DNA of 64,000 bases from assembly GCA_965277805.1 (NCBI GenBank), contig OZ255842.1:5216001-5280000 (forward strand). Reading direction: 5' to 3'. Within the stretch, counting starts at the first letter, position 1; each line of letters starts with the position of its first letter. The notes below the pieces were generated by a model that searched no databases, was not told the origin of the DNA, and saw nothing but the letters and a program-made list of their open reading frames with translations. A program made the position numbers and the translations under genes. Origin of the DNA: Candidatus Lustribacter sp. GTDB lineage: Bacteria; Vulcanimicrobiota; Vulcanimicrobiia; Vulcanimicrobiales; Vulcanimicrobiaceae. Shown here piece after piece: positions 16,079 through 23,751 of this stretch.

Positions 16079-17119
16079 GTGATTTTGCACTTCGACCTCG
16101 ATGCGTTCTATGCGTCGGTCGCCCAGCGTGACGATCCGAGTCTGCGCGGCATTCCGCTCGCGATCTCGGGGTCGAGCCGCCGCGCGGTGGTGCTCACCGC
16201 GTCGTACGAAGCGCGGCCGTTCGGCGTGCGTTCCGCGATGCCGCTCTACCGTGCGCTCGAACTGTGCCCGCAGCTCACGGTGGTGCGCCCCGAGTTCCCC
16301 CGTTACCGGGAAGCCTCCGACCGCGTCTTCGCGATCTTCGAAGACGGCTCGACGGCGGTCGAGGGTCTCTCGCTCGACGAGGCGTTCGTCGCGCTCGCGG
16401 ATTCCTCGCTCGAAGCCGCGGTCGCGTTTGCCGAACGCGTGCGCGAGCGCGTGCGCAACGAGGTCGGCCTCACGTGCAGCGCCGGCGTCGCGACGGTGAA
16501 GATGGTTGCGAAGATCGCTTCCGATGCGAACAAGCCCGACGGCCTCACGGTCGTTCCCCCGGGCACCGAGCGGGAGTTTCTCGCGCCGCTGCGCGTCGGC
16601 GCGCTGTGGGGCATCGGCCCGAAGACCTTGCCGCGCGTCGAAGCGGCGGGCGTGCGCACGATCGGCGACGTGGCCGCACTCGACGATGCGGCGTGTTACC
16701 GCATCTTCGGACGCGGCGGCACGTTCTATCGCGATCTTGCCAACGGGATCGACGACCGGGTCGTCGATCCCGTCCGCGAACGCAAGTCGATCTCGAGCGA
16801 AGAAACCTTCGAGTACGACGTGCGCGACGAAGCACGCATCCTCGCGCTCCTGCGCGAGCAGTCCGAAGAACTGAGCGAGGGCCTGAAGAAACGCGACATG
16901 CGCGCGCAGACCGTCGGCATCAAGATCAAACGCAGCGACTTCACCGTTACCGGCAAGCAGACGACGCTCACCGTGCCGACCAACGACGCCGACACGATCC
17001 GCGCCGCCGCCGAATGGTGCTGGAACCGGTCCGGCCTCAAAGGCGTCCCGATCCGACTCCTTGGCACGCGCGTCGCATCGCTCACGATCGGCGAAGAACG
17101 CGAGATGCGGCTGTTCTGA
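16079..17119 (+). CDS. dinB: DNA polymerase IV (Y family)
   Basis: ILHFDLDAFYASV, SYEARPFGVRSAMP, SLDEAF, AKIASDANKPDG, C-terminal IRLLG. Confidence 0.93.
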   Translation: MILHFDLDAFYASVAQRDDPSLRGIPLAISGSSRRAVVLTASYEARPFGVRSAMPLYRALELCPQLTVVRPEFPRYREASDRVFAIFEDGSTAVEGLSLDEAFVALADSSLEAAVAFAERVRERVRNEVGLTCSAGVATVKMVAKIASDANKPDGLTVVPPGTEREFLAPLRVGALWGIGPKTLPRVEAAGVRTIGDVAALDDAACYRIFGRGGTFYRDLANGIDDRVVDPVRERKSISSEETFEYDVRDEARILALLREQSEELSEGLKKRDMRAQTVGIKIKRSDFTVTGKQTTLTVPTNDADTIRAAAEWCWNRSGLKGVPIRLLGTRVASLTIGEEREMRLF

Positions 17120-19784
17120 TAGCGGGGCCATGTTCGCGCAGGCGTTGCTGCAGTGTTTCCAATGAGCCGGGCCTTGCCAATAAGTAGCCTTGACCCAGCC
17201 GGCAACCATGGTCTAAAAGCCAGCGCAACTGCTCTTCGGTTTCGATGCCTTCCGCGAGCGTCGTGAGGCCGAAACGGTTCGTTAGCTGCAGCAACAGTTC
17301 CGTAATGGCGCCGTCGTGTTCGTCGTGAGGTAGCCCGATCACGAACGAGCGGTCGATCTTTATGACGTCTACGATGAGCTGCTTCAGATACGATAGTGAT
17401 GAATGCCCGGTGCCGAAATCGTCAATCGCGACGGATAAGCCCCACTTCCGAAGCAGGCTAATCGTGTGCATTGCTCCGTCAATGTTCTGCATCGCGGTCG
17501 TTTCCGTCATTTCGACACCCAAATGTGCTGCGAGTCCCGGTGCCGCACGCAGTGCCTCGTTCAAGTCCGCGATAAACGTGAAATCGTCGAGCGTCTGCGC
17601 CGCGACGTTGAAATATACACGAAAACCACTCGGGAGTACGACACCCCCGGTGAAATCACGTATGAGCCGCTGGAGTACCCACCGAGTCAAAGGATTGATC
17701 AATCCGTTACGCTCGGCGGTTGGAATGAATTCTGCCGGCAAGAGCCGGCCCCGCTCCGGATGATCCCAGCGAACCAAGGCTTCGGCGCCGGTAACCGTCC
17801 GCGTTGCTAAGTCGAACGTCGGCTGATACACGAGCGCGAGCTGATCACCAGCGATGGCGTCGGCGAGCTCCACAAGGCGCACGCGCGATTCTTCCAAGAT
17901 CGTTTCCATCGAATGGTCGAAGGAGACGGTCGTCGAGCCATTGCGGGCCTTCGCGACACTGAGTGCCACGTCGGCCCGGCGCATCAGTTCCTCGGGAGTC
18001 GTCCCGTCTTCGGGAAAGCTCGCAGAGCCGATCGATGCTCCGACTTTGAGCATGCGCGTCCCTTCGCGATCGCCCGTGTGAAACGGCGTATGAAACTGTT
18101 CGGCATATTTTTCAAGCGCGCTTGCGGTCGAAGCCGGGGTTTCTACACCGGATAGGAGGACTCCGAATTCGTCGCCATTCATGCGCGCGACGAGATCGTT
18201 TGCATTGACGGCTGCAAGAGTCATGGCGATCTCCACCAGGACTTCGTCGCCGAGCATGTGTCCATGACGTTCATTGATTTGGCGAAATGCGTCGAGGTTG
18301 ATGAATGCCAGCGTGAACCGGTTCTTGCGATTTAGCTCGTTGCGGATAGCATTTCTAAATTGTGCCCGATTGTGAAGTCCCGTAAGCGCATCGTGCTCGA
18401 TCTGAAACTGAATGCGTTCGAACTGCAGTGCCTCGGAAAATCGCGTCGCAAAGAATGAGGCGACGACGTCGATGTATGCTTTGTCGTCTTCGGCGAACGG
18501 CCGATCCGTCATCGGCTCAGGGGAACCGAAACTGAGGAAATACGTCTTGCGGCCGATCGTTACCGTCGTTCCGATATAGCTCTGCCAGCCGGCTTCACTC
18601 CAGGCCTTTCCGTCGCCGTTCATGACCGTCAGATCGTCCCAGGCGGTCGTACGGGTTTCGGTTAGTAGAAGGGCGCTCATCGTGTTTTTCAGTGCGAACG
18701 TCGCGCCTGGAAAGATCGAGTCCATGAAACGCTGCGTATGCGGTTCGGATGCACTCCACGACGTTGCGTCAACGATGACTTGTTGATCGTCAAGGTGTGA
18801 AAGGCAGCCGAACATCGCTTTGCCCGGTCGAATTGCAATCGTTGCGGTCTGTAAGATCGCATCGAACGCGAGTGCTGAGGGCCCCCCCTTCGACGCAATA
18901 GCCCAAATCGCCCGAATCCGGTCTGCACGCAACGATGCCTCGTGGGCAAGCTGCTTGGAGGCCAATTCTGCGCCGTGGAGCTCGATACGTGCGTCTATGA
19001 GCGCGCGCATAGCGGACCACAAGACGAACGAGGCTCCAAACAAGAGCAAGACTCGCCCGACGTAGTATGACCCGCTATAGCGATGCCCCCCCGCCAGAAA
19101 CAACGTGAACTCAAACGTGATGGCGAGCAGCGAAAATGCCAGCGAGCGTTCGATCGTCGTCGGGCCCGCGATTCCGACGGCAAGCCATGTGGCGAGGCCG
19201 AGCAGGAGCACGGTGGCCGGTCCCACTCCGGTCGACATGAGGCGGGCGACCGATGCGTGCGAGGCTAGCGCCGGTAGACGGTCGACCCAGACAAAGGCGG
19301 TGGCAACTGCCAAGGCAACCACCGCAGTCGCGATGCTGGTCGCAGCCACGGTAAAACGCTTCGAAGGATGCCCGGCATCATCGCGCCGGCGAAATACGAC
19401 ATAGGAGAGGGCCCCGGCGCTCGCGACCACGTGCCAAAAAACGTAAAGCCAGATTCCCGTTTGCTCTGAAACGTCCAGCATTGGTGCATTTTCCGGCATC
19501 AACGGCAGTGTTGCCATCGCCAGAAGTAAGATTATCGCGCACGCACCGAACGAGAGGCCGAGCACGAACGTCGAACGCTTGCCGGACGCATAGCGCCAAG
19601 TCGAAAGCAGGACGAAAGCCGTTGCAGCGTCGCCGACTACCGCCATTGCGTAAGCGATGGGCGCCAGACCGGCTAAACGAAGGATCGGAGTGTTCGGAGA
19701 AACCGCGCCGGCGACGGCGAACGCGACGATGCACGCCGCCAATAGAAGGCTGTGGCGGCTGTTTACCGCCAGCTTAAAAAACAC
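17082..19784 (-). CDS. membrane sensor (MASE4-like multi-TM domain, GAF-like) GGDEF-EAL protein; probable c-di-GMP phosphodiesterase
   Basis: Several hydrophobic N-terminal helices; HDALTGLHNR; degenerate ARMNGDEF; intact YQP, AEALVRW, DDFGTGHSSL, KIDRSF, AEGIE. Confidence 0.88.
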   Translation of the reverse strand: MFFKLAVNSRHSLLLAACIVAFAVAGAVSPNTPILRLAGLAPIAYAMAVVGDAATAFVLLSTWRYASGKRSTFVLGLSFGACAIILLLAMATLPLMPENAPMLDVSEQTGIWLYVFWHVVASAGALSYVVFRRRDDAGHPSKRFTVAATSIATAVVALAVATAFVWVDRLPALASHASVARLMSTGVGPATVLLLGLATWLAVGIAGPTTIERSLAFSLLAITFEFTLFLAGGHRYSGSYYVGRVLLLFGASFVLWSAMRALIDARIELHGAELASKQLAHEASLRADRIRAIWAIASKGGPSALAFDAILQTATIAIRPGKAMFGCLSHLDDQQVIVDATSWSASEPHTQRFMDSIFPGATFALKNTMSALLLTETRTTAWDDLTVMNGDGKAWSEAGWQSYIGTTVTIGRKTYFLSFGSPEPMTDRPFAEDDKAYIDVVASFFATRFSEALQFERIQFQIEHDALTGLHNRAQFRNAIRNELNRKNRFTLAFINLDAFRQINERHGHMLGDEVLVEIAMTLAAVNANDLVARMNGDEFGVLLSGVETPASTASALEKYAEQFHTPFHTGDREGTRMLKVGASIGSASFPEDGTTPEELMRRADVALSVAKARNGSTTVSFDHSMETILEESRVRLVELADAIAGDQLALVYQPTFDLATRTVTGAEALVRWDHPERGRLLPAEFIPTAERNGLINPLTRWVLQRLIRDFTGGVVLPSGFRVYFNVAAQTLDDFTFIADLNEALRAAPGLAAHLGVEMTETTAMQNIDGAMHTISLLRKWGLSVAIDDFGTGHSSLSYLKQLIVDVIKIDRSFVIGLPHDEHDGAITELLLQLTNRFGLTTLAEGIETEEQLRWLLDHGCRLGQGYLLARPGSLETLQQRLREHGPAIRTAASRVLRRS

Positions 19785-19925
19785 GGTCCCCCGTCTCGCG
19801 CGAAACTCAGTGCGTCAAAAGAGAACCGACGAACCGATCTATCGAGCGTCCACCCATTTCAGGCTACCATACAATTTACTGATCCTTGGAGCGTTAGCGT
19901 ACGCAAGCAGCGTTTCACAGGCTCC

Positions 19926-21044
19926 CTACAGGCCCCAGGGCCACGGGAAGCCGATCGTCAGCGCGCCTTCGAGGGTGGTGGCGCCGTTGAACGTGTGCTT
20001 GTTCTCGATCAGCAGCCGCGCGTGACGGCCGAGTTGCGTGGCGGCGTAGATTACGACATCGCGCGTCGCCGTCGGCGTCGCCGCGGAGTCATACCGCGTG
20101 CCGAGATAGGCATGATTGCCGAGGGCATAGCGGATGCGCGCGAAGCCGCCGCTCGAACCGAACGCCGTTCCGAAACCGTCGGCATCCGCATCGTGGCCCC
20201 ACCACTGCTCGGTGAGCATGCTCCAATGCGCGCGATGGAGATCGAGTCCCACCGCATCGCGCCGGTAGCCGTCGAGAAACGCGCCGGTGCCGCTCGGGAA
20301 GATCTCGCGCGAGCCCTCCATGGCATCGCCGCTAAGGGTCGCCCAATCGGTGACCGGCGTGCGCACGAACAAGCCGATTTCGGGCCGGCCGGCGCGCGTG
20401 TTGATCCCGGTGTTGATCGGTGCGCCGCCGTATGCTGCGCCTTTGAATTCGCCGACCGCGAAGGTACCGTCGATCACGGTGCTGCCTGCGTGTTGCTCGA
20501 CCTCGACACCTAGGCGCGGTTGCGCGAGCGTGAGATCGTTGAGCCCGACGTGTGAGCCTTCGTAGCCGTAAGTGGCCAAGTCGTCGAGTCGTTGACCCGG
20601 TGAGTGAATCAGCGGTAATTCGTAGAGGCCGGTGCGGATCAACGTTTTGGAATGCTGCAGATACGTTGCCGCGTAGGCGAGATAGGCACCCGACGGTCCG
20701 CCCTGCGCGCCGAGGTTGTAGTGCAGAAAGAGGCTGATGCGGCCGACGTCGGCGTTGGAAAGGAGCACGCCGCCCGGCACCAACGGGCGCGCACCCGGAG
20801 CCGGATCGCGATCGTCTTCGAGCTGGTAGCGGAACGCAATCCCCGTCGTGCCGTGTTTACGAATCGGCAGTTGATAGCCGTGGTCGCGAAACGCGTTGCC
20901 GAACGCGTTGAGTTCGGGCAGCACGCTGTGGCAGGCTTCGCACTTCATCTGATAGCGTTGCGCGAAGAGTGGAATCGCCGCTGCGGGCTGCGGTGCGCAT
21001 ACCGCGAACAACACGAGCGCTGCGAGCAGAAGTCTACTGAACAA
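19926..21044 (-). CDS. Cyc2-like fused monoheme cytochrome c / outer-membrane beta-barrel protein
   Basis: Signal peptide ending AAA, then IPLFAQRYQMKCEACHSVLPELNAFGNAFRDHGY, then amphipathic beta-strand-like segments. Confidence 0.75.
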   Translation of the reverse strand: MFSRLLLAALVLFAVCAPQPAAAIPLFAQRYQMKCEACHSVLPELNAFGNAFRDHGYQLPIRKHGTTGIAFRYQLEDDRDPAPGARPLVPGGVLLSNADVGRISLFLHYNLGAQGGPSGAYLAYAATYLQHSKTLIRTGLYELPLIHSPGQRLDDLATYGYEGSHVGLNDLTLAQPRLGVEVEQHAGSTVIDGTFAVGEFKGAAYGGAPINTGINTRAGRPEIGLFVRTPVTDWATLSGDAMEGSREIFPSGTGAFLDGYRRDAVGLDLHRAHWSMLTEQWWGHDADADGFGTAFGSSGGFARIRYALGNHAYLGTRYDSAATPTATRDVVIYAATQLGRHARLLIENKHTFNGATTLEGALTIGFPWPWGL

Positions 21045-21468
21045 CGATTTCGCCCCGCATCGGATGGCCGTAGTGAAAGAAACAACCGAACAAATACGTA
21101 CCGGGCTGGTCGGCCGTAAACACCGGCGACGCCGCGCCGGCTTGCAGCGTGCCGCTGCTCCAGCCGGCAGAGAGCGCCGAACCCGACGCGGTCAGCGCCG
21201 AGCCGTCGAACGGTGATGCGGCTGGAAACGTCGAGCCGGCGATCGACGTCGCGGTGTGCGCGAACGAATCGGTGTTGACGAACTGTACGTGCGTTCCGAC
21301 AGCGACCGTCAGCACGTCGGGAGAATAGCCGTTCATGAACGACGTCAGGTTAACGGAAATTGTCTGCGCGTTTGCAGCGCCGGCGCCGCTGCCGGCTGAC
21401 GGCGCACCGAAGGTGCAACCGCTCAATGCAACGACGAGGACGAGTGCCGAAAGCCGGTGCGCGTTCAC
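21034..21468 (-). CDS. cupredoxin (plastocyanin-type) lipoprotein
   Basis: Lipobox LSGC; NTDSFAHTAT; GTYLFGCFFHYGHPMRGEIVVQ (C-x2-H-x4-M). GTG 21468 follows a TATCAT box. Confidence 0.85.
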   Translation of the reverse strand: MNAHRLSALVLVVALSGCTFGAPSAGSGAGAANAQTISVNLTSFMNGYSPDVLTVAVGTHVQFVNTDSFAHTATSIAGSTFPAASPFDGSALTASGSALSAGWSSGTLQAGAASPVFTADQPGTYLFGCFFHYGHPMRGEIVVQ

Positions 21469-21563
21469 GCCGCCATGATAAAGTCGTTCGCTTGAAAAAG
21501 GACTGAACGCGAGCACGCGCTGCGTTCAGGCATCGTTCAACCAAGCATTGTAGGCTCGGTTGC

Positions 21564-22178
21564 ATGAAACGTTTAGGACTTCTCGCAGCATGTGCGGGGC
21601 TTTCAGTCGTGGTTGCGGCATGCGGCGGCGGCAGCGGCGGTAGCGGCGCCTCCACTGCGCTCACGACCCCGATCCCAACCGCGACGCCTGCATCGCAAAC
21701 GACGGCGACCCCGCAACAAATCGAGATGGCGCTGCCGGGCGGTACCGGCATCGGTACGGAAACCGATCCGACATTCGGCGCGATCGCCGGCTACACGCAG
21801 CAAACGTACTCGCAAGTTCTGGCGTTCGTGCCGGGTGCGCAAATCATGATCGTCAACGGTCAAGCCGCATCGAGCGCGACGCCGCACACGCTCAACGTTC
21901 TTTCGCAAACTTCGTTTCCGGCGAATCCGACGTTGACGACGACCGCCGCCGGTGGATCGACGATCGCCGCCGGGTTCCAAACCGGCGTCGTTGCCGCGGG
22001 AACCACGGTCGGGCCGTTCACATTGACGGCCGGCCTCTACTATATCGGGTGCGGCTTCCACTATCTCTCGAACGGCATGCGAACGGTGCTTGACGTTGCG
22101 GTGGCGGCGACGCCCGGCCCGCAAGCGACGCCGGTGCCGACGCAAGCGGTCCTGCCGAACAACCCCTACGGCTACTGA
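21564..22178 (+). CDS. cupredoxin-domain lipoprotein with Pro/Thr/Ala linkers
   Basis: Lipobox VAAC-GGG; PHTLN; GLYYIGCGFHYLSNGMRTVL (C-x2-H-x5-M). Confidence 0.78.
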   Translation: MKRLGLLAACAGLSVVVAACGGGSGGSGASTALTTPIPTATPASQTTATPQQIEMALPGGTGIGTETDPTFGAIAGYTQQTYSQVLAFVPGAQIMIVNGQAASSATPHTLNVLSQTSFPANPTLTTTAAGGSTIAAGFQTGVVAAGTTVGPFTLTAGLYYIGCGFHYLSNGMRTVLDVAVAATPGPQATPVPTQAVLPNNPYGY

Positions 22179-22726
22179 TGCGCCGGCTCGCAAAGTTCGC
22201 GCTGCTCGTCGCGTTCCTCGGCACGCTCGCTGCGCCCGCAGCGAGCGCTGCGGCGGGACGCGCGGTCGGTGACATTCCCCTGGTCGATCAGTCCGGCGTG
22301 CCGTTTCACTTGAGCGAACTCGTCGGGCGTCCGGCGGCGATCACGTTCTTTGCTACGCGCTGCCAAGATACATGCCCGATCGTCAACGCGGTGTTTGCGC
22401 GCCTGTCGCGCGCGTCGCTGCACGCGCGGCTGGTGACGATCTCGCTCGATCCCGGCTACGACACGCCGTTCGTCATCGCGAATTACGCCCGTGCGCTGCA
22501 AGCACGCACGCCCGCGTGGCACTTCGTCACCGGCAAACCGGCCGACGTCGCGAGCGTGCTCGCGGCCTTCGGCGTCGTGCTCGAGAAGGGTTCCGACGGC
22601 ATTCCGGATGCGCACAGCGACATGATCTACATTCTCGACCATCGGGGCCAGCTCGCGAACACGGTTCCGCTCTCGACGCATTCGTTCGCCGATCTCCGGA
22701 GCGCGTTGACGAAGCCTTCGCTCTAG
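22178..22726 (+). CDS. SCO/SenC family copper chaperone
   Basis: LVDQSG, FFATRCQDTCP (CxxxC), ISLDPGYDTP, AHSDMIYILD; signal peptide. Confidence 0.88.
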   Translation: MRRLAKFALLVAFLGTLAAPAASAAAGRAVGDIPLVDQSGVPFHLSELVGRPAAITFFATRCQDTCPIVNAVFARLSRASLHARLVTISLDPGYDTPFVIANYARALQARTPAWHFVTGKPADVASVLAAFGVVLEKGSDGIPDAHSDMIYILDHRGQLANTVPLSTHSFADLRSALTKPSL

Positions 22727-22758
22727 GAGTCTTCCGGCGACATCGGAAAGCGCCGGAA

Positions 22759-23751
22759 ATGAAGATGCGTAAGCTTGGCTCGGCCGGCCCTGAAGTGTCG
22801 GCCATTGCGCTCGGATGCATGGCGATGTCGGGTGTCGGAGGTCCCACCGACCGCGGCGAGAGCATCGCTACGATTCATGCAGCGCTCGATGCGGGCATCA
22901 ACCTGCTCGATACCGGCGACTTCTACGGCAGCGGGCACAATGAATTGCTCATCGCCGAGGCGCTGCGCGGCCGCAAGCGCGACGACGTTCTGCTGAGCGT
23001 GAAGTTCGGTGCGATGCGTGCGCCGGCCGGGCAGTGGGGCGGTGGCTACGATGCGAGCCCGGGAGCCGTGAAGAACTGGCTCGCGTATTCGCTCGTGCGC
23101 CTGGGCGTCGACTGCATCGATATCTACCGGCCGGCGCGACTCGATCCGCAGGTCCCAATCGAAGAAACCGTCGGCACGATCGCCGAGATGGTCAAAGCGG
23201 GCTACGTGCGCTACATCGGGCTCTCCGAAGTTTCGGCGGCGACGATCCGGCGCGCAAACGCGGTCCATCCGATCGTCGATGTGCAGCTCGAATACTCGCT
23301 GTTCACGCGCGGCATCGAAGACACGATTCTGCCGGCGTGCCGGGGGCTTGGAATCGATATCACCGCGTACGGCGTGCTCGCGCGTGGATTGTTTGGCGGA
23401 TCGATGGCCCAAACGCGAACGTCGACGCGCGCGAGCTTACCGCGCTATACGGGCGAGAACCTCGAGAAGAATCTGGCGCTGGCCGACGCATTGCGAGCCG
23501 TCGCGAATGCGAAGGACATCTCTCACGGCCAAATCGCCATCGCCTGGGCGTTACATCAGGCTGCGGAGATCGTGCCGGTGATCGGCGCGCGCACGCGCAC
23601 GCAGCTGGCCGATGCGCTCGGCGCGTTGGACGTCACGCTGACCGCGGGCGACCTCGCCGCAATCGAAGCCGCCGTTCCGAAAGGCGCGGCCGCCGGCGAG
23701 CGCTACAACCCCCACCAAATGCGCGAACTCGATTCCGAAGTGCGCGTCTAG
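22759..23751 (+). CDS. aldo/keto reductase
   Basis: ALGCMAM, DTGDFYG, SVKFG, IDIYRPAR, YIGLSE; ATG 22759. Confidence 0.9.
   Translation: MKMRKLGSAGPEVSAIALGCMAMSGVGGPTDRGESIATIHAALDAGINLLDTGDFYGSGHNELLIAEALRGRKRDDVLLSVKFGAMRAPAGQWGGGYDASPGAVKNWLAYSLVRLGVDCIDIYRPARLDPQVPIEETVGTIAEMVKAGYVRYIGLSEVSAATIRRANAVHPIVDVQLEYSLFTRGIEDTILPACRGLGIDITAYGVLARGLFGGSMAQTRTSTRASLPRYTGENLEKNLALADALRAVANAKDISHGQIAIAWALHQAAEIVPVIGARTRTQLADALGALDVTLTAGDLAAIEAAVPKGAAAGERYNPHQMRELDSEVRV

Follow-up and report, generated by a model that had tools for sequence, protein, structure and literature searches.

Cyc2, a cytochrome fused to a porin, is the main genetic marker for inferring microbial iron oxidation from genomes. 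In Acidithiobacillus ferrooxidans, Cyc2 reportedly hands electrons to rusticyanin, and the genes are said to lie in the rus operon, cyc2-cyc1-acoP-coxBACD-rus. Lipid-anchored type-1 cupredoxins with a flexible linker, such as auracyanin A of Chloroflexus and Laz of Neisseria, serve in photosynthetic or respiratory chains. In Keffer et al. 2021 (PMC8406198), Cyc2 is recognized by a signal peptide, one CXXCH, the motif AXPXFAR[Q/K][T/Y], a PXL 4 residues on, a 16-strand porin, and a length of at least 365 aa (the FeGenie filter); the signature is there called unique to Cyc2, and the screen for the tree used PXFAR[Q/K][T/Y]. Here, we analyze a 64,000-nucleotide stretch of a Candidatus Lustribacter genome (GCA_965277805.1, contig OZ255842.1, positions 5,216,001 to 5,280,000, hereafter the window), which holds a four-gene cassette: a cyc2-like gene, two genes for type-1 copper lipoproteins (cupA and cupB), and sco, a gene of the SCO1/SenC family (Table 1). 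The stretch belongs to a single contig of 5.53 Mb, cited below as G000:C1 or C1. The four open reading frames (ORFs) and their arrangement were all found where an initial annotation of the window had placed them, and we give roughly even credence to the reading that the set forms a compact conduit, from the outer membrane to the periplasm, which would carry electrons inward from Fe(II) to a copper protein.

Like the rus operon as it is commonly recounted, the cassette encodes a Cyc2-type protein together with two cupredoxins (one of them membrane-bound in rus), and the route would likewise run from Fe(II) to a copper protein to an oxidase. Unlike in the rus operon, the cupredoxins of the window are plastocyanin-like lipoproteins rather than rusticyanin or AcoP, the cluster includes SCO and in most relatives also a two-component system and a tetratricopeptide-repeat (TPR) protein, and cupA is translationally coupled to cyc2. 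The rus-type genes cyc1 (dihaem c4) and coxBACD are absent within 7 kb on either side and among the recurrent neighbors of 80 related loci. Auracyanin A and Laz are tethered by a lipidated Cys and a linker as CupA and CupB are, and auracyanins are among the PDB matches of both, but the auracyanin A and Laz genes are not known to adjoin a porin-cytochrome gene. The cyc2-like protein resembles A. ferrooxidans Cyc2, Mariprofundus Cyc2PV-1, and Leptospirillum Cyt572 in its signal peptide, CxxCH, PxL, and barrel of about 16 strands, and in matching no Pfam model. In contrast, and taking the published definition rather than the characterized sequences as the standard of comparison, its clade has the motif AxPxFAQRY and forms a separate group in a quick tree (98 by the Shimodaira-Hasegawa-like approximate likelihood-ratio test, SH-aLRT). 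It is also shorter, at 372 aa versus 439 for Cyc2PV-1 and 485 for Cyc2 (lengths from PMC13741234).

A further cluster, Slit_1812-1818 of Sideroxydans lithotrophicus ES-1, likewise groups genes for a predicted cytochrome, SCO1/SenC, and cupredoxin-domain proteins, per PMC12016527, and shows higher expression on solid Fe(II) (magnetite). Of its three copper proteins, two contain multicopper-oxidase motifs and have a predicted extracellular location, unlike those of the window, and the cluster appears closer to that of a second Cyc2-like gene in this genome (paralogue 2, described below) than to the window cluster.

The initial annotation did not recognize the arrangement as a described system. 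A literature search on Cyc2 with Eremiobacterota, fused cytochrome-porin, and cupredoxin found no paper describing the operon, and to that extent the statement stands; the pairing of Cyc2 with copper proteins is, however, reportedly known from rus, an operon also cited in PMC13594681 (ref. 72). Cyc2 homologues have also been reported in Eremiobacterota via FeGenie, in MAG 15 (PMC8357290) and in metagenome-assembled genomes (MAGs) of Baltobacteraceae (PMC13594681). As an electron conduit, its most likely role, the four-gene set would put an idea that is already known into a new and compact form.

The fused cytochrome-porin

Read from its TTG start, the cyc2-like protein begins MFSR...PAAA followed by IPLFAQRYQMKCEACHSVLPELNAFGNAFRDHGY, matching the N-terminus quoted in the initial annotation. 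By eye, the signal peptide is MFSRLLLAALVLFAVCAPQPAAA followed by IP, with a hydrophobic core, then A-x-A, and cleavage after AAA. The layout continues as AIPLFAQRY-x3-CEACH-x3-PEL and then a predicted beta-barrel of about 16 strands. This N-terminus aligns across 22 homologues, and C35, C38, and H39 of the single CEACH (residues 35-39) are invariant in 22/22, as are P43 and L45 of the PEL that follows CEACH-SVL. Residues P25, F27, A28, Q29, R30, and Y31 upstream of the CxxCH and an internal stretch, E142-R177, are invariant in the same alignment.

The N-terminus had been taken for the Cyc2 signature, a claim borne out by the CxxCH, the PxL, and the spacing but not by the motif itself, which reads FAQRY and not FAR[Q/K][T/Y]. 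Against AxPxFAR[Q/K][T/Y], the sequence AIPLFAQRY fits at 7/9 positions, and its spacing to the CxxCH is the same as in representatives with the canonical motif. The other elements of the published definition are present (signal peptide, single CXXCH, PXL, a predicted barrel of about 16 strands, and at least 365 aa). On its sequence, the 372-aa protein is best regarded as a Cyc2 relative outside the operational definition, and with AIPLFAQRY it would have been dropped by the screen of PMC8406198.

In the database, this gene is called from M33, which yields 340 aa. We rejected that start because the 32 residues upstream of it are alignable in the homologues and include the invariant motif. Starting at M33 loses the signal peptide and the FAQRY motif (window 20949-21044) and puts the length under the 365-aa filter, which the 372-aa form from the TTG start passes and the 340-aa call would fail. 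Together with the deviating motif, this means that surveys may miss the clade or treat it unevenly.

The AlphaFold2 (AF2) model built from the 22-sequence alignment (predicted local distance difference test, pLDDT, 68.7; predicted template modeling score, pTM, 0.72) opens with helices at the N-terminus; 17 strand segments come after these, and two of them probably make up a single kinked strand. Foldseek matched this model to 261 PDB chains at E<=1e-3, the top matches being the general porins OmpF, OmpK36, OmpU, and OmpM1 (E about 1e-9, TM about 0.5), which we take to be mostly 16-stranded. A predicted barrel and a conserved CxxCH, as the initial annotation would have them, were both found. 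Sequence searches of the PDB with the protein's profile returned 0 matches at E<=1, and no Pfam or NCBIfam model matches the 372-aa protein.

Of 512 homologues retrieved by a word-index search, the best 120 share at least 54% identity with the window protein, to which they are similar in length, and hardly any of them carries a name. A HMMER profile scan of 1.84 billion representatives gave 2509 matches at E<=1e-3, 182 at E<=1e-10, and 34 at E<=1e-30. Distant full-length matches (400-520 aa) carry AxPAFAR[K/Q][Y/T]-x3-CxxCH-x3-PxLN, spaced as in the 372-aa protein. In a quick IQ-TREE phylogeny with a midpoint root (71 sequences from 150 listed representatives), the 15 rows with FAQRY form a clade of their own (98% SH-aLRT), a 17-row clade with FAH[R/Q][Y/F] motifs includes both other Cyc2-like paralogues of this genome, and the canonical-motif proteins make up a 37-row group. 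A profile search from 14 canonical-motif representatives brought up no named iron oxidizer among the 120 proteins listed, and a cluster look-up of 10 such representatives gave only MAG entries named 'hypothetical protein'. The ESM Atlas returned unnamed clusters and a Porin_O_P lead in 20% of one cluster. Plasmids searched by tblastn with the window protein and paralogue 2 yielded no match.

Cupredoxins, SCO, and the conserved neighborhood

Both copper proteins have the cupredoxin lipoprotein motifs described in the initial annotation, H...C-x2-H-x4-M in CupA and H...C-x2-H-x5-M in CupB, each with a lipobox. In CupA, the ligands are H87, C145, H148, and M153, the lipobox is LSGC with the lipidated residue at Cys34, and a Gly/Ser/Ala linker of about 17 residues follows. 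Pfam assigns it to Copper-bind (3.6e-7) and Cupredoxin_1 (3.9e-7), both over cut-off, and its profile matches plastocyanins in the PDB down to 9e-7. In CupB, the ligands are H108, C163, H166, and M172, the lipobox is VAAC (Cys20), and the tether, a Gly/Thr/Pro linker, is disordered and about 40 residues long; a Pro-rich tail ends the protein. A Pfam scan found no match for CupB, and the possibility that it is not a cupredoxin was rejected on two grounds: hhalign aligned it to CupA (99.4%, E 4e-21), and the top Foldseek matches of its AF2 model are all cupredoxins (pseudoazurin, plastocyanin, auracyanin, and amicyanin; E about 1e-3). The core of that model has pLDDT 70-89, with residues 10-50 and 188-204 below 50. 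By fold and by the His...Cys-x2-His-x4/5-Met ligands, both proteins are cupredoxins; their type-1 sites are plain, and neither sequence has a copper-binding stretch rich in His or Met.

The ligands are close to fully conserved over related loci. For CupA, the lipobox C34 is kept in 77/80, H87 and M153 in 80/80, and C145 and H148 in 79/80; for CupB, the lipobox Cys and H108 are kept in 32/33 and C163, H166, and M172 in 33/33. SCO, assigned to SCO1/SenC as in the initial annotation (PF02630, 1e-17, 64.8 bits against a cut-off of 22.8), has an N-terminal signal or anchor and the motif C62-x3-C66 with H146, conserved in 68/68 (C62 and C66) and 67/68 (H146) sequences.

In the window, the TTG start of cyc2 overlaps the cupA stop by 11 nt and the ATG of sco overlaps the TGA of cupB by 1 nt, so that both gene pairs are translationally coupled. 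Translation of cupA probably begins at the GTG of V17, inside the longest ORF and near 21468; the product then has 144 aa and a normal lipoprotein signal peptide, and the gap between cupA and cupB is about 95 bp, versus 47 bp with a start at 21516.

To place this arrangement among relatives, we sampled one genome per species; 243 stretches fit the search pattern, and a relative is encoded in 215 of them. The 80 best loci were used further; with few exceptions they come from MAGs of Eremiobacterota (Vulcanimicrobiota), the phylum to which the labels of close homologues, among them Baltobacteraceae and Velthaea, also point. Neighbor presence was scored by tblastn, and further neighbors by ORF clustering and Pfam. 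Directly upstream of cyc2 on the same strand, cupA is present in 76/77 loci with at least 600 bp of upstream sequence, the exception being L051. The cupA stop lies 61-91 nt ahead of the motif Pro codon in 70/79 loci and within 106 nt of it in 77/79 (the two outliers are at 263 and 313); as this codon is about 25 codons into cyc2, the two genes abut or overlap as a rule. In 65/74 loci, an SCO gene is found no more than 6 kb upstream of cyc2; it is adjacent and shares the strand in 58 of these and has the opposite strand in 7. A cupB gene is found within 6 kb in 31/68 (29 same strand, 2 opposite). The genes do co-occur widely, and none of the outcomes that the initial annotation had named as refuting its reading was observed; the invariant CxxCH together with a neighborhood that recurs in 80 loci makes the set real beyond chance. 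Around these genes, most loci also have an OmpR-type response regulator (RR) next to cyc2 (68/76 of the loci that extend far enough downstream), a short histidine kinase (HK; 64/70), an upstream TPR protein (64/67), and a divergent 600-aa CarboxypepD_reg protein (59/81), all four of which are absent beside the window cassette. The usual order, on one strand, is TPR-cupB-sco-cupA-cyc2-RR-HK. The divergent layout had been described as such for the window, where it is found; it is, however, a minority form, with sco-cupB facing away from cupA-cyc2 in the window and its nearest relatives (L010, L011, and L025), whereas most relatives keep one strand with the two-component system downstream.

Three side observations concern these loci. 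A PF03640 lipoprotein (Lipoprotein_15, SCO0930-like; for example L010:5760-6395, minus strand, and 20 other loci) often fills the cupB slot beside sco, in 21 loci versus 33 with cupB and never with both, and may be an alternative SCO partner. A second Cyc2-like gene, 24-30% identical, lies within 7 kb of cupA-cyc2 in 8/80 loci (L011, L018, L020, L024, L036, L060, L061, and L062). Four loci (L047, L055, L051, and L065) are on contigs labeled Acidobacteriota (Acidiferrales, Acidoferrum), Verrucomicrobiia, and Limnocylindria; their orthologues are 51-54% identical, cupA adjoins three of them, and either binning error or transfer between phyla would account for them.

Among the genomes sampled from the phylum, 228/401 have an orthologue of the cyc2-like gene at E<=1e-40, as do 149/247 of those of high quality; these tallies take in ten genomes flagged as unpublished. 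The orthologues fall in three families (200/296, 4/5, and 23/30 genomes), with none at that threshold in the other 18 sampled families or in three congeners. This distribution bears on the suggestion that the cassette supplies copper to cuproenzymes, with the pore admitting copper, the heme reducing or gating it, and the cupredoxin-fold proteins and SCO passing it to the CuA site of an oxidase. SCO has an established role in CuA assembly, the genome has two CuA-type oxidases, and SCO lies between cupB and cupA in 58/74 loci, as such a route would have it. Complete His-Cys-His-Met type-1 copper sites are, however, sites of electron carriers and not of chaperones, and those of CupA and CupB are fully conserved; an orthologue in 228/401 genomes and 0/3 congeners is moreover patchy for a housekeeping maturation route. 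We consider copper supply improbable.

The same genome also shows that the four genes travel as a unit. The usual flanks, CarboxypepD_reg (minus strand), TPR, RR, and HK, are at C1:1180721-1185069, 4 Mb from the cassette, and at this empty site (L122) the end of the TPR gene is 44 bp from the RR gene with no cassette between. Congener G401, in which no cassette was found, has the same empty site, with one 78%-identical match running across the junction. In contrast, about 2.9 kb including cyc2 lies between TPR and RR in G376, the genome with the orthologue of highest identity (68%). At the site that the cassette occupies in the window, G401 (contig C41) has dinB ending at 20654 and lhr starting at 20687, 33 bp apart, and the cassette DNA had no match at E<=1e-20 in any of four congeners. 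The empty usual site and the abutting dinB and lhr of G401 indicate that in this lineage the set was relocated, or lost and regained, without the two-component system. The four genes moved together, without their usual flanks, and the description of the cassette as self-contained is in this sense apt. Around the cassette, a search for repeats found only short, GC-rich, chance-like ones, and no repeat or mobile-element gene that explains the move. As a separate matter, the orphan two-component system left at the empty site may have another target.

Proposed inward electron transfer and its alternatives

If the cassette is an inward conduit, the cyc2-like protein, as a small divergent Cyc2 relative, would form an outer-membrane barrel of about 16 strands with one c-type heme on its N-terminal segment. 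A soluble reductant, most likely Fe2+, would reach this heme and yield an electron. The electron would then pass to CupA, with its short tether and its gene translationally coupled to cyc2, and from CupA to the aerobic respiratory chain and its oxidase, possibly with CupB on its longer tether as an intermediate. SCO could supply copper to the copper sites or keep their cysteines reduced. A complex prediction of the cyc2-like protein (24-372) with heme and CupA (35-160) scored 0.30 against a mark of 0.32, which counts neither way for a contact between the two.

Several lines of evidence point to this reading: the signal peptide, the single invariant CxxCH, the PxL, and the predicted porin barrel; homology, at the same spacing, to proteins with AxPxFAR[K/Q][Y/T]-x3-CxxCH-x3-PxL; the near-constant adjacency of cupA (76/77) and its coupling, together with the conserved copper ligands, the lipobox Cys, and the CxxxC-His of SCO; and the location of the four genes away from their usual flanks. 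The genome search proposed in the initial annotation, for heme-c maturation genes and terminal oxidases, was also positive. A single BamA implies that the host has an outer membrane. For cytochrome c assembly it has one gene, of the CcsA type, and away from the cassette it encodes two heme-copper oxidases that have CuA subunits, with a cytochrome c domain fused in one case; these too agree with a conduit. At least 13 class-I cytochrome c domains score over cut-off. The hand-over from Cyc2 to rusticyanin reported in A. ferrooxidans is a precedent for the proposed route. In addition, per PMC13594681, certain Baltobacteraceae MAGs are FeGenie-predicted iron oxidizers, and in some samples of Cu/Ni tailings these accounted for as much as 89% of the community.

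A number of points weigh against it. Homology alone gives no function, and no member of the Eremiobacterota is known to oxidize iron. The strict published motif is not the one present (FAQRY), and the operon has neither cyc1 nor cox genes. A single, weak match to RuBisCO_large was found in the genome (69 bits, E 7.9e-19, G000:C1:1226515-1227198, within a 622-aa open frame). It probably represents a RuBisCO-like protein and not an enzyme of carbon fixation, and so weak a match gives no sign of lithoautotrophic growth on iron. The usual two-component system scores best against RppA and the heavy-metal subfamily, under cut-off for both, and from its sequence would fit copper sensing as well as redox sensing; paralogue 2, followed by genes for a multicopper oxidase and a CusF-SCO fusion, likewise points to a copper theme.

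The opposite direction of flow, in which respiratory electrons would be exported to Fe(III), Mn(IV), or humics, would draw on the capacity of porin-cytochromes to work either way, which is established for Mtr/Mto; metal reduction was also among the options in the initial annotation. Nothing in this analysis favors export, however, and type-1 copper proteins usually have high potentials, about +200 to +700 mV, which would make them poor donors to most extracellular acceptors near neutral pH. Export is, in our judgment, very unlikely.

The two further Cyc2-like genes of this genome, 29-32% identical to the window protein, are found beside other partners. Paralogue 2 (393 aa, motif AIPVFAHRF; L008:2930-6479, equivalent to G000:C1:363930-367479, minus strand) precedes genes for a multicopper-oxidase lipoprotein of 536 aa and a CusF-SCO fusion of 249 aa, and the multicopper oxidase adjoins in 7/7 loci that have a Cyc2-like gene at least 60% identical to paralogue 2. 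Paralogue 3 (373 aa; L009:5623-7298, equivalent to G000:C1:2392623-2394298, plus strand) overlaps the start of a YceI-family gene, and YceI adjoins in 12/12 loci at least 60% identical to it. A CopC-CopD fusion is encoded about 2.6 kb away (L009:9897-11105), with a major facilitator superfamily transporter nearby. By their partner genes, two of the three pore-heme genes in this genome are wired to copper redox proteins and SCO; in paralogue 3, a pore-heme gene is paired with the lipid- or quinone-binding YceI. The three paralogous modules, with cupredoxin, multicopper oxidase, and YceI partners, suggest that the pore-heme unit is a general-purpose adaptor, and such pairing is a warning not to infer an iron oxidase from each Cyc2 homologue that is found.

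With copper proteins beside two of these genes, the window set might instead be a redox module for copper homeostasis, in which the porin-cytochrome, the cupredoxins, and SCO handle copper itself (for example by oxidation of toxic Cu(I) in the envelope, by buffering, or by relay) under a copper-sensing two-component system, so that copper would be a substrate and not a cofactor only. The response regulator that is next to cyc2 in most loci scores 4.1e-56 against TIGR01387 (the heavy-metal regulator subfamily, CopR/CzcR-type) and the kinase 9.5e-31 against TIGR01386. An SCO gene within the operon, paralogue 2 with its multicopper oxidase and CusF-SCO fusion, and the CopC-CopD fusion near paralogue 3 agree with this, and proteobacterial cop clusters offer precedents in the cupredoxin CopI and the cytochrome CopJ. 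Nevertheless, the regulator and kinase scores are under the family cut-offs, with RppA scoring slightly higher, and the outer loop of the kinase is only about 30 residues long, unlike that of CopS/CusS. The plain type-1 sites of CupA and CupB, the lack of an obvious copper-buffering role for a heme in an outer-membrane pore, and the 4 Mb between the cassette and that two-component system in this genome also speak against a copper-handling function, which we judge unlikely.

Inward electron transfer remains the reading that we favor, and its near-obligate, coupled cupredoxin is a testable candidate for the missing periplasmic step after a Cyc2-type protein outside acidophiles. A bolder and rather doubtful extension would make the four genes a portable 'copper wire' that is poor in heme: electrons from Fe(II) would enter at the cell surface through a Cyc2-type pore of minimal size, and the two cupredoxins, on tethers of about 17 and about 40 residues, would take them over the periplasm without a soluble cytochrome, in more than half of the sampled Eremiobacterota. 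If this were true, an abundant phylum of peat and soil would be an unrecognized iron oxidizer, partly missed through the motif regex, the length filter, and truncated gene calls.

Feature coordinates and flanking genes

Table 1. The four-gene cassette and associated features, in window coordinates
Feature	Position	Strand	Basis
cyc2-like gene, fused monoheme cytochrome-porin	19926-21044	-	372 aa ORF
cupA, plastocyanin-like type-1 copper lipoprotein	21034-21516	-	longest ORF 160 aa; Pfam
Divergent intergenic region cupA/cupB, presumed site of two promoters	21469-21563		sequence read
cupB, second type-1 copper lipoprotein	21564-22178	+	204 aa; hhalign and fold
sco, SCO1/SenC-family copper chaperone or thiol-disulfide protein	22178-22726	+	182 aa; PF02630
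6.6-kb segment between dinB and lhr: MASE4-GGDEF-EAL, four-gene cassette, aldo/keto reductase	17120-23751		congener DNA search and Pfam

A sigma-70 consensus scan of 19600-22900 returned 0 promoter-like sites, and the promoters were thus not located; a scan for terminators gave 1 terminator-like site versus 2.9 expected. The 6 sequencing runs listed include no RNA run, and 4/6, from 2 studies, hold DNA of the locus wholly or partly. The cassette is flanked by unrelated housekeeping genes, which Pfam identifies as an AP-endonuclease-fold protein, DinB, MASE4-GGDEF-EAL, an aldo/keto reductase, and the Lhr helicase. The MASE4-GGDEF-EAL protein (900 aa, 17082-19784, minus strand) is encoded directly downstream of the cyc2-like gene; it adjoins the operon in 0/80 related loci and is part of the 6.6-kb segment that G401 lacks between dinB and lhr.

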